DNA of 32,488 nucleotides, taken from contig JAHQWS010000204.1 in NCBI GenBank assembly GCA_029856295.1, positions 1 through 32,488 of the forward strand, written 5' to 3'. The notes below the pieces were generated by a model, which worked only from the letters and a program-made list of their open reading frames with translations, searched no databases and was not told where the DNA came from. This DNA is from Promethearchaeia archaeon. GTDB lineage: Archaea; Asgardarchaeota; Lokiarchaeia; Sigyniarchaeales; SOKP01. This document shows positions 15,378-16,587 of the stretch, in pieces. Position 1 is the stretch's first letter. Each line of letters begins with the position of its first letter. Position numbers and translations under genes: made by a program.

Positions 15378-16587
15378 ATGACCATTAAAAAAGTTGGAAT
15401 TTTAACGGGTGGCGGAGTCATGTTAAAGGATTTCTTTAGCTGCCGTATACTGCCCGGGTTTAAACAGCGTAATATATGGCATTATGTTGAAAGCTTTCGA
15501 TGCCGGTGTTGAGTGTGTCGGTATTAAAAAAGGATGGAAAGGATTTTTAGAAAACTTGACCATTCCCCTCAATATTGCAGAACACGATGATCTCCATACT
15601 ATAGGAGGAACTCTCTTATATACCAGTAGAACCAATCCTTTTAAAGGAGTTGATTCTAAAGAAGAAAAATCAAAAGAGTTAGGAAAAAAATTTGATGATC
15701 TCGGCATTGATGCTCTAATCGCGATTGGTGGAGATTTAAAATGGTTTCCATTTTAAACTAAAAACGATACCCTCGGAGTCGCGGATGCTTTATATAAATA
15801 TGCAAATGCTAAGGTCGTTGGATGTCCAAAGACGATTGATAACGATTTAGCTGGCACCCATTATACTTTCGGATTTTGGAGTGCCGTTCAACTAGCATCA
15901 AATGCCATGGACAATCTTACAACCACGGCTAGATCCCATCAAAGAGTCTTTATTGTCGAGATAATGGGACGAGATGCCGGATTTTTAACAATGTACAGTG
16001 GAATCTCTTCAGGAGCAGATATTATTCTTATACCAGAAACACCATTCGATTTTGAGAGAGATCTTGTAGGCGTGCTAAAAAAAAGAGCAAATGCCGGTCA
16101 TAAATATCATATGATTGCGTGCTCTGAAGGGGCCTATCCCGATCAAGCATCACTTAAGCGAGACTTTAAGACTATAACCCAGGAGACCATTGATAAATTA
16201 CCAAAAGATGTCTTCGGAAATCCAATGTTACCCGCATTGAATATTTCAAACATATTAGTAAAGGAGTTAAATCTAAGAGATGATTTAAAAGAAGTTTTCA
16301 AGAAAAATGGAGTCGATTTTGAATGCCGTAGTGTAGTGCTGGGTCATACTATGAGAGCGGGAACACCCAATTCTTTTGATAGAATATTAGGACTTAGATT
16401 CGGTTTAGCAGCTATGAAACTCGTGCTTGATGGGGAATTCGGAAAAATGGTTTCCCTCCAAGGTACTGATATTACCACTTTTCCGCTTGAAGAGGGGGTA
16501 AATAAGAAATATATCAAGCCCGAAAGCGATAAATTAGAACTTAGGGATTTAATGGTTAAAATAAGGTATAAATCAAGAGAAAATTAA
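15378..16587 (+). CDS. pfp: Phosphofructokinase (PfkA family, PPi-dependent signature); three exons join(15378..15417,15449..15733,15764..16587), 382 aa
   Basis: Joined translation: MTIKKVGILTGGG-D-CPGLNSVI...GGTLLYTSR...LIAIGG-D-DTLGVA...GCPKTIDND...TFGF...SHQRVFIVEIMGRDAG...LGHTMRAG. Exons 40+285+824 = 1149 nt = 383 codons including the stop. Confidence 0.9.
15418..15448 (+). other. Putative BHB intron 1 (31 nt) in the pfk mRNA
   Basis: Central helix GCGG(15412-15)/CCGU(15443-46); bulges AG^U and AU^A; inner hairpin CA-GUUAAAG/CUUUAGC-UG; outer exon helix CGGGUG/C-GCCCG. Removal gives GGA GAC TGC (GGGDCPG). Confidence 0.85.
15734..15763 (+). other. Putative BHB intron 2 (30 nt, in-frame TAA) in the pfk mRNA
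   Basis: Perfect 10-bp inner hairpin UUUAAAAUGG/CCAUUUUAAA; bulges AG^A and AA^A; central helix GUGG/CUAA (3 pairs plus a G.A mismatch); outer helix AUUG/CGAU. Removal gives GGA GAC GAT ACC (GGDDT). Confidence 0.82.

Follow-up and report, generated by a model that had tools for sequence, protein, structure and literature searches.

A bulge-helix-bulge (BHB) intron interrupting an archaeal pre-mRNA, that of cbf5, was reportedly described by Watanabe in 2002 and by Yoshinari in 2006. The accessible parts of PMC2738675 place this intron in Desulfurococcales and Sulfolobales, where it interrupts the codon for a catalytic residue. The tRNA-splicing endonuclease, which is heteromeric in its hosts, cuts this intron, and some lineages have lost it. 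A second case is the HVO_1309 mRNA of Haloferax volcanii, which EndA cleaves and whose spliced form appears in RNA-seq data, as far as the accessible text of PMC10485636 and PMC7714728 goes. Here we describe two short inserts of 31 and 30 nt in the phosphofructokinase (PFK) gene of an Asgard archaeon, located on the contig JAHQWS010000204.1, whose whole analysed stretch of 32,488 nt (GC 33%) is called the window in the following. Both inserts lie in the same nine-letter exon context, GG(C/T)GGAG^AC (^ marks the insertion point), which, taking the evidence as a whole, is probably best explained as the exon half of a BHB, met twice since the peptide motif Gly-Gly-Asp occurs twice in the gene.

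Like the cbf5 intron, the PFK inserts are short, sit in a protein gene and carry a (relaxed) BHB at their borders. They differ from it in their Asgard host, in the glycolytic kinase that they interrupt, in occurring twice in one gene with splicing that is predicted, and in belonging to a uniform module of 29–32 nt that recurs in related genomes at nine or more other sites. HVO_1309 is likewise an archaeal mRNA with a BHB for the tRNA endonuclease, but differs in lineage and gene; its flanks were not compared. Non-canonical tRNA introns of Asgard archaea, as covered by the accessible parts of PMC11291895 and of the preprint 10.64898/2026.10.13.758758, come from the same lineage and share the exon-supplied BHB half, repeated gains and a patchy distribution. 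In contrast to these, the hosts described here are protein-coding, so codons also constrain the exon half. Transposed tRNA introns of Thermoproteales, reportedly described by Fujishima in 2010, resemble our case in that apparently related bodies occupy different host sites (here PFK intron 2, a tRNA T-loop and an AAA gene), whereas the family found here spans tRNA and mRNA hosts and has three members only. An allusion to these transposed introns is also made in the accessible introduction of the preprint 10.64898/2026.10.13.758758. In the searchable literature, supplements aside and as far as its text was accessible, enzyme-spliced introns are on record for only two archaeal protein genes, cbf5 and HVO_1309, and the Asgard papers deal with tRNA introns only; the accessible part of a 2023 review (PMC10485636) states that more such mRNA introns probably remain.

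The two PFK inserts and their predicted fold

The PFK gene (15378–16587, plus strand) appears as three pieces in a list of open reading frames (ORFs). Site 1 reads GGCGGAG (15411–15417), insert, AC (15449–15450), and site 2 reads GGTGGAG (15727–15733), insert, AC (15764–15765), the boundary of insert 2 being ambiguous by 1 nt (an A). Each insert follows a Gly-Gly pair and splits the next codon, GAC, after its first base (phase 1). Excision of both leaves 1149 nt and 382 codons with a sole, terminal stop, the Pfam PF00365 profile coordinates continue over both junctions (Table 1), and intronless PFK orthologues align without gaps at both insert sites. Coordinates and frame thus bear out the shared context, the phase and the split GAC codon that had been claimed for both sites in an earlier note on this DNA, as well as its AG as the first bulge bases and its A as the first downstream exon base. 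Its view that the two intron bodies are dissimilar also holds (global alignment score −3, rank 58 of the 105 pairs among 15 introns), and so does the lack of a target-site duplication, with boundary repeats of 0 nt at site 1 and 1 nt at site 2. In this respect the inserts are unlike transposable insertions that duplicate their target.

Three other kinds of gap were considered for PFK and rejected. The core of a group I or group II self-splicing intron needs hundreds of bases, far beyond 31 and 30 nt; no Rfam family was found at gathering score within the window. Inteins are incompatible with a length of 31 nt, which is not a multiple of three, and with the in-frame TAA of insert 2. In programmed translational bypass of the T4 gene 60 type, matching take-off and landing codons flank the gap; at PFK no GGA or other GGN codon stands right before either resumption point, and both gaps resume in the middle of a codon.

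We read all sites under one fixed BHB geometry, in which the central helix H joins exon positions −6 to −3 with intron bases n−5 to n−2, the 5′ bulge consists of −2, −1 and intron base 1, the 3′ bulge consists of intron bases n−1 and n and exon position +1, and the inner helix begins at intron base 2. At both PFK sites only one boundary choice keeps the protein intact, and it also gives pairing under this geometry. Site 1 forms helix H with 4 of 4 pairs (one G·U), an outer helix of 5–6 bp and an inner helix of 2 bp followed by a 7-bp hairpin. Site 2 forms H with 3 of 4 pairs (G·A at the outer position), bulges of 3 nt each, an outer helix of 4 bp and an inner helix of 10 bp.

The comparison with relatives covered 41 related genomes, whose splice sites were read from pieces of 66–102 nt, and PFK is present in 39 of them. 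Of 28 PFK loci readable at site 1, eight contain intron 1 in the identical position, and these eight span at least four genera; intron 2 is shared, at an unchanged position, by three of 30 loci, namely those of G000 (the genome holding the window, 72% complete), G022 and G019; G022 has intron 2 only, while six genomes have intron 1 only. Across the eight intron 1 sequences 94.9% of the cells are paired, which none of 500 shuffles matches, and a slid control with the partner moved by 1–3 columns gives 31–54%; four pairs are compensatory, and helix H is 100% paired in all eight. Among the three intron 2 sequences the stem changes from G-C to A-U, and in G022 and G019 an Ile codon ATC brings a C-G pair into the outer helix of site 2 in place of U-G. 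Intron 1 is spanned by variant metagenome contigs of two studies and intron 2 by a contig (X3) of a third; in these metagenome runs, intronless alleles depart from the window sequence exactly after position 15417. Both PFK inserts thereby combine several features that mark BHB pre-mRNA introns, namely a bulge-helix-bulge, a flanking helix of at least 2 bp, a restored frame and compensatory changes. That they are spliced, and by which enzymes, we infer from these features and from the gene content of the genomes.

EndA is encoded in G000, and four of five complete relatives possess two EndA paralogues of about 203 aa each. Heteromeric EndA is the broad-specificity type, and the two paralogues suggest an endonuclease of this type. 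RtcB, the ligase that finishes BHB splicing, was found in 37 of the 41 relatives. Actin-family genes, a hallmark of Asgard archaea, are present in G000 with matches of up to 441 bits. The association of heteromeric EndA with broad specificity is also made in the accessible part of PMC5829648.

Some further differences among the PFK loci were observed. Most relatives' PFK carries an insertion of about 10 residues near residues 83–93 that is absent in G000, G006, G009 and G010, and G019 and G022 likewise show no gap for it when window positions 15378–15733 are compared with loci L002–L024. In the region upstream of the start codon, G000 and G008 differ from G001, G003 and G007. Segment-wise identity gave no clear signal of a recombinant 5′ part of PFK at the protein level.

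A class of mini-introns with a common exon rule

G000 was compared with G001, a sister genome of the same genus of which 2.58 Mb (56%) were included, in a motif-free census that used blastn as well as reciprocal tblastn searches with every stop-to-stop ORF, each alignment being extended over skipped stretches of 24–39 nt. Gaps in the DNA alignments peak at 28–32 nt (10, 9, 10, 7 and 5 cases), with 3 gaps of 27 nt and one of 33 nt on either side. The census table has 57 rows, 11 of which were viewed at the DNA level; the other 46, judged from the table, are mostly inserts of 8–27 nt or of more than 35 nt, or weak matches. The census and family searches, one of which brought a chance find, together give a total of 11 mRNA sites, with introns of 29–31 nt, or 29–32 nt when the relatives' copies are included. 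They are listed in Table 1, where host names come from Pfam. A 25-nt insert on contig C88 and inserts at G001 C3:292097 and C259:5658 were rejected, as they lack either a BHB or an alignable orthologue.

Table 1. Parts of the interrupted PFK gene (positions in the window) and the 11 mRNA mini-intron sites. The insertion point is marked by ^ in exon letters; a slash marks the exon-intron cut within bulges and the split point within protein motifs.
Feature	Position or genome	Strand	Letters	Phase	Remarks
PFK exon 1	15378-15417	+			ATG at 15378; 13 codons and first base of split GAC
Mini-intron 1	15418-15448	+			31 nt: 1 bulge base, hairpin, 4-nt tail CCGT, 2 bulge bases
Site 1, helix H, exon strand	15412-15415	+	GCGG		partner 15443-15446 (tail CCGT)
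Site 1, 5′ bulge	15416-15418	+	A G / U		cut after second base
Site 1, 3′ bulge	15447-15449	+	A U / A		alternatives: C15450 unpaired, or 4-nt bulge
PFK exon 2	15449-15733	+			Pfam PF00365 profile 11-100, E 6.5e-20
Mini-intron 2	15734-15763	+			30 nt: 1 bulge base, 10-bp hairpin, tail CTAA, 2 bulge bases
Site 2, helix H, exon strand	15728-15731	+	GTGG		partner 15758-15761 (tail CTAA, 3/4 pairs)
Site 2, outer helix h, exon strand	15724-15727	+	ATTG		partner CGAT 15765-15768
PFK exon 3, including stop codon	15764-16587	+			Pfam PF00365 profile 103-276, E 3.4e-54
PFK site 1	G000 (window)		GCGG AG^AC	1	Gly-Gly-Gly-Asp
PFK site 2	G000 (window)		GTGG AG^AC	1	Ile-Gly-Gly-Asp
RNase HII	G000 C197		TGGT AG^AG	2	DEAGR/G
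NAD-epimerase family	G000 C204		ACGT AA^AC	1	just before catalytic Tyr motif
aIF2-gamma-like GTPase	G001		ATGG TA^AA	1	P-loop GHVDHG/K
GH38	G001		CGTG AA^TG	0	HWDRE/W
AAA-like gene	G001		GGTG TA^CT	0	APGGV/
Sir2	G001		ATGG AA^AC	1	ELHGN/
BKACE	G001; identical intron in G000 C179		TGGG AA^AT	2	GGAHGK/
Octopine-DH-like gene	G001		GTGG AA^AC	1	GGGN/GG
RtcB	G005, G002, G021		TTGG AT^AC	1	GGVGY/DINCG

All 11 sites form a helix H of 3–4 bp and an inner hairpin under the fixed geometry, and six of them fall in the first ~25 codons of their genes. The module, at 29–31 nt, also interrupts tRNA and 23S rRNA genes of G001. According to RNAfold, nearly all of 15 introns (the 11 in mRNAs, three in tRNA genes and one in 23S rRNA) share a body plan of one free base, an 8–10-bp hairpin and a free 3′ tail of 5–8 nt, mostly 6; the exceptions, both at the 5′ end, are PFK intron 1 and the tRNA-Leu intron.

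With the coding-strand composition of 1419 long ORFs of G000 (1,996,875 coding positions) as background, the sites are biased towards A at −2 (9 of 11, P=0.002), a purine at −1 (10 of 11, P=0.014), A at +1 (9 of 11, P=0.002), C at +2 (6 of 11, P=0.002) and G at −6 to −3 (26 of 44 positions, P=8e-9), and 7 of 11 are in phase 1 (P=0.04). When the two PFK seeds are removed, the flank bias persists with A at −2 in 7 of 9, a purine at −1 in 8, A at +1 in 7 and C at +2 in 4 (P 0.01–0.04), and with G at 20 of 36 positions (P=1.7e-6), whereas phase 1 is left with 5 of 9 (P=0.14). A larger set, which the earlier note had called for, hence upholds the flank bias and shows a weak phase bias. The biased positions are exactly those of the BHB exon half, comprising helix H, the bulge bases (two before the intron and one after it) and the closing pair, −7 pairing with +2 in 8 of the 11 sites. 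The intron is preceded by AG at 3 sites and by A-purine at 8, and a near-PFK context, GGTGGAA^AC, is found in the unrelated octopine-DH-like gene. Gly stands within three residues before the split at 10 of 11 sites and makes up 21 of the 77 residues in seven-residue windows, against a background of 6.5% (P=1e-8).

The eukaryotic proto-splice site is MAG^R. By analogy, the rule found here may be set beside it as a short exon-side consensus around an intron, but it would serve a protein endonuclease and a ligase in place of a spliceosome, its consensus would come from pairing and bulges, and no homology is implied.

Within the long ORFs of G000, GG[CT]GGAGAC has six uninterrupted copies, while in the 1.15-kb PFK coding sequence it occurs twice, both times with an intron. 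Four PFK positions are eligible under the class rule (at least two G in H, then A, R ^ AC), and the two that are occupied are the Gly-Gly-Asp motifs. The chance that the PFK contexts match is about 1 in 3 given the class rule and about 1 in 1100 positions without it. Since both PFK introns obey the class rule, their identical contexts need no special event.

We propose that EndA would excise both mini-introns from the pre-mRNA and that RtcB would rejoin the exons. Exon positions −6 to −3 (GCGG or GUGG) would form the 4-bp central helix with the intron's last-but-two four bases, the exon's A and G together with the first intron base would make up the 5′ bulge, the exon's A at +1 and the final two intron bases the 3′ bulge, and C at +2 with G at −7 would open the outer helix, the intron body folding as a hairpin. 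As the cut by EndA follows the second base in either bulge, the exon would have to supply four pairing bases followed by A-R^A-(C), and as the two introns split the same peptide motif (GGN GGA G^AC), the same nine letters would result. In an AT-rich genome a stable 4-bp helix could probably be had only from G-rich stretches, mostly Gly codons; with these codons supplying helix H, the introns would fall in Gly-rich nucleotide-binding and catalytic loops. Selection for splicing would then hold the flanking synonymous positions, visible as rare NAC and GGC codons and as exon-intron covariation.

Several points weigh against this explanation. The relatives are non-independent samples, and the set of 11 sites comprises only introns that differ between G000 and G001 plus chance finds; the flank statistics rest on n=11, are partly post hoc and have P values uncorrected for multiple tests. 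Site 1 is off canon, having either a 3-bp H with a 4-nt 3′ bulge, as favoured by RNAfold and RNAalifold, or a G·U in H with C15450 unpaired, and folding energy does not single out the PFK sites (z −1.1 to −1.4, with 17–31 of 200 shuffles equal). RtcB was not found in G000 at 72% completeness, and no RNA run with the PFK locus was found, so splicing is inferred. Scanning G000 for a relaxed BHB that restores an ORF gave ~4000 matches per strand, equal to frame-shifted decoys at every threshold, and a stricter module scan with an orthologue check gave 23 matches against 12–22 decoys in G000 and 26 against 18–23 in G001. The stricter scan re-found only six sites, all known, and as the motif scans gave no excess over decoys, the class of mini-introns appears to be small.

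On single genes, the following was noted. The rtcB gene is split by a 29-nt BHB mini-intron in its metal-binding motif in 3 of the 37 genomes that have an rtcB match (loci G005:C13, L165; G002:C3; G021:C222). A 29-nt mini-intron of 23S rRNA lies in G001:C1 near 205298 (L041), in the context ...CTCTTA^AGGTAGCC..., and is absent from G000. A tRNA gene on G000 C280 near 20386 and its G001 orthologue both contain a T-loop intron, an extra anticodon-loop intron being present in G000 only. Other tRNA genes of G000 are often interrupted as well; contig C308 (5286–8170) of G000, outside the window, holds 23 of the genome's 41 Rfam tRNA matches back to back, full-length and intronless. This contig could be foreign, or the tRNA array could be mobile or viral. 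A cobO-like gene on G000 C317 (9336–9869) was rejected as an intron host because it has TAA and TAG where its C261 paralogue has sense codons; it looks like a pseudogene or a read-through case. It is the sole broken cobO copy of G000, and none of the 41 genomes searched yielded an intron in cobO. Matches to cobO are also split in two with overlapping profile ranges in G030:C2:130577-131209 (1–62 and 39–172) and likewise in G037:C785:606-1253 (2–66 and 40–172).

Codon choice, possible kinship of intron bodies and rival explanations

At PFK site 1 all eight intron alleles read GGC GGA G^AC TGC CC, whereas the codons vary among 20 intronless alleles, with GAT in 17 and the 9-mer in only one. At site 2, GGT GGA G^AC is present in 3 of 3 intron alleles as against 0 of 19 readable intronless ones. 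Among Gly codons GGC is the least used (11%), and 16.5% of the Asp codons are GAC. Throughout the class, the six NAY codons that are split in phase 1 are all NAC, against a share of 0.18 for NAC genome-wide (post hoc, P=3e-5), while in intronless orthologues the same positions hold NAT in five of six cases and −2 varies. The octopine-DH-like gene has the intron in one of the four genomes that possess the gene, the sole intron of the set confined to a single genome, and its nearest intronless allele reads GGG AAT versus GGA A^AC with the intron, the H tetramer being unchanged. The single intronless PFK allele with GGC GGA GAC at site 1, L013 from G016, may be the footprint of a recent precise intron loss.

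Covariation extends from the introns into the codons. In the six genomes with the RNase HII intron, a Gly wobble base covaries with its intron partner (pair 21,48: UG in three, GC in two, CG in one), compensatory changes affect 8 of 15 pairs, and paired cells amount to 91% as against 75% after shuffling, with none of 500 shuffles reaching this value; downstream, GG[CG] CC of the intron alleles pairs with GGCU upstream, where the intronless alleles have GG[AT] CCA. In the aIF2-gamma-like gene of seven genomes, a His wobble change from T to C is matched by A to G in the intron. As judged from these alignments, the data show an exon half that would be held by selection for a spliceable shape, unless the flanks were co-transferred with the intron, and we take selection, not the insertion step, to be the likely cause of the flanks. 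Every intron examined is patchily present among relatives, which shows that precise loss or gain is frequent. The earlier note had also considered that introns are retained at essential catalytic codons; their placement in Gly-rich catalytic loops agrees with this, but G-rich Gly codons also explain that placement, and patchiness indicates frequent precise loss or gain.

Comparison of the bodies with tRNA introns, likewise proposed earlier, was positive for PFK intron 2. Its hairpin resembles the T-loop intron of a G001 tRNA gene (score 16), a host confirmed by an Rfam tRNA match of the G000 orthologue, and also the intron of the G001 AAA gene (score 10); in a hairpin-preserving null of 300 trials, the maximum score is 9 at the 95th percentile and 12 at the highest. 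Stem differences within this family are compensatory, and the 4-nt tails differ, each fitting its host. The likeness is suggestive of common ancestry or of movement between tRNA and mRNA for these three members. A blastn-short search of the intron bodies against both genomes yielded nothing significant except the identical BKACE intron on G000 C179, and a regex search for further members of the hairpin family was uninformative, with 1081 matches in AT-rich DNA. At the aIF2-gamma-like site, different genera have very different bodies.

These observations bear on an insertion-site preference, according to which mobile mini-introns would favour, for example by reverse splicing and cDNA recombination, a proto-splice site [G-rich]4-A-R^A-C as offered by both PFK sites. 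The class-wide flank consensus agrees with it, as do the likeness of intron 2 to the tRNA and AAA-gene introns, the patchy presence among close relatives and the aIF2-gamma-like site, whose differing bodies could be repeated hits. We nevertheless consider it unlikely, given that intronless orthologues, including the octopine-DH-like allele with GGG AAT, mostly lack the motif at −2 and +2, that the 9-mer stands uninterrupted six times in G000, that for most intron bodies 5.8 Mb of sequence contain no relative, and that the accessible part of the preprint 10.64898/2026.10.13.758758 gives no general arrival route for Asgard tRNA introns. What stands of the target preference first suggested for this locus is therefore the flank consensus; the data do not show recognition of AG^ by an insertion machinery.

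Mere coincidence, i.e. unrelated introns that happen to sit at two Gly-Gly-Asp motifs, would suit two sites in one gene with unrelated bodies, the more so as the four eligible positions make a match a one-in-three event, but without the class rule the figure is about 1 in 1100; nine further introns obey the flank rule, one of them at GGTGGAA^AC, and synonymous positions are fixed in all intron-bearing alleles, which makes chance quite improbable. The weak folding z-scores and the lack of an RNA run would also allow that the inserts are not introns at all but the result of pseudogene decay, an assembly artefact, or bypass or frameshifting in translation. Such origins are very improbable, considering that the same sites are occupied in eight and three genomes with intact exons and compensatory stem changes, that variant contigs of other studies carry the inserts, that take-off and landing codons do not match, and that the same module occurs in tRNA and rRNA genes, where nothing is translated. 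Hardly credible, finally, is that one PFK intron was derived from the other by transposition into a look-alike site: the exon contexts agree at 8 of 9 letters and phase and size are the same, yet the bodies are dissimilar, intron 2 resembles the introns of other genes, and the two introns are distributed differently among the genomes. The preferred explanation thus remains the exon half of a BHB, encountered at two Gly-Gly-Asp motifs.

Meaning for Asgard genes and genomes

The value of the PFK introns is that they reveal the size and regularity of a class. The known set grows by eleven sites from a single Asgard family, among them the two in the glycolytic PFK gene, and a rule is provided for finding the remaining introns: a 29–32-nt module, a 4-nt tail complementary to the exon, and A-rich bulges. 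As gene callers fragment such genes, here those for PFK, RNase HII, the aIF2-gamma-like factor and RtcB, reconstructions of Asgard metabolism can wrongly list key enzymes as absent or defective.

More tentatively, and on balance doubtfully, retargetable mini-introns made of a hairpin of ~23 nt and a 4-nt exon-complementary tail might move among tRNA, rRNA and mRNA genes, persisting only at [G-rich]4-A-R^A. If this is true, such sites in protein genes would be Gly-rich catalytic loops, and a proto-splice-site rule would be joined with an intein-like 'safe harbour' logic for enzyme-spliced introns, in the closest prokaryotic relatives of eukaryotes. The rtcB ligase gene and an initiation-factor gene are themselves among the mini-intron hosts. 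In the choice of synonymous codons, the exon half of the splicing motif leaves an imprint that can be measured, and the mini-introns offer a system for studying how introns settle in protein genes, in the lineage nearest to eukaryotes.

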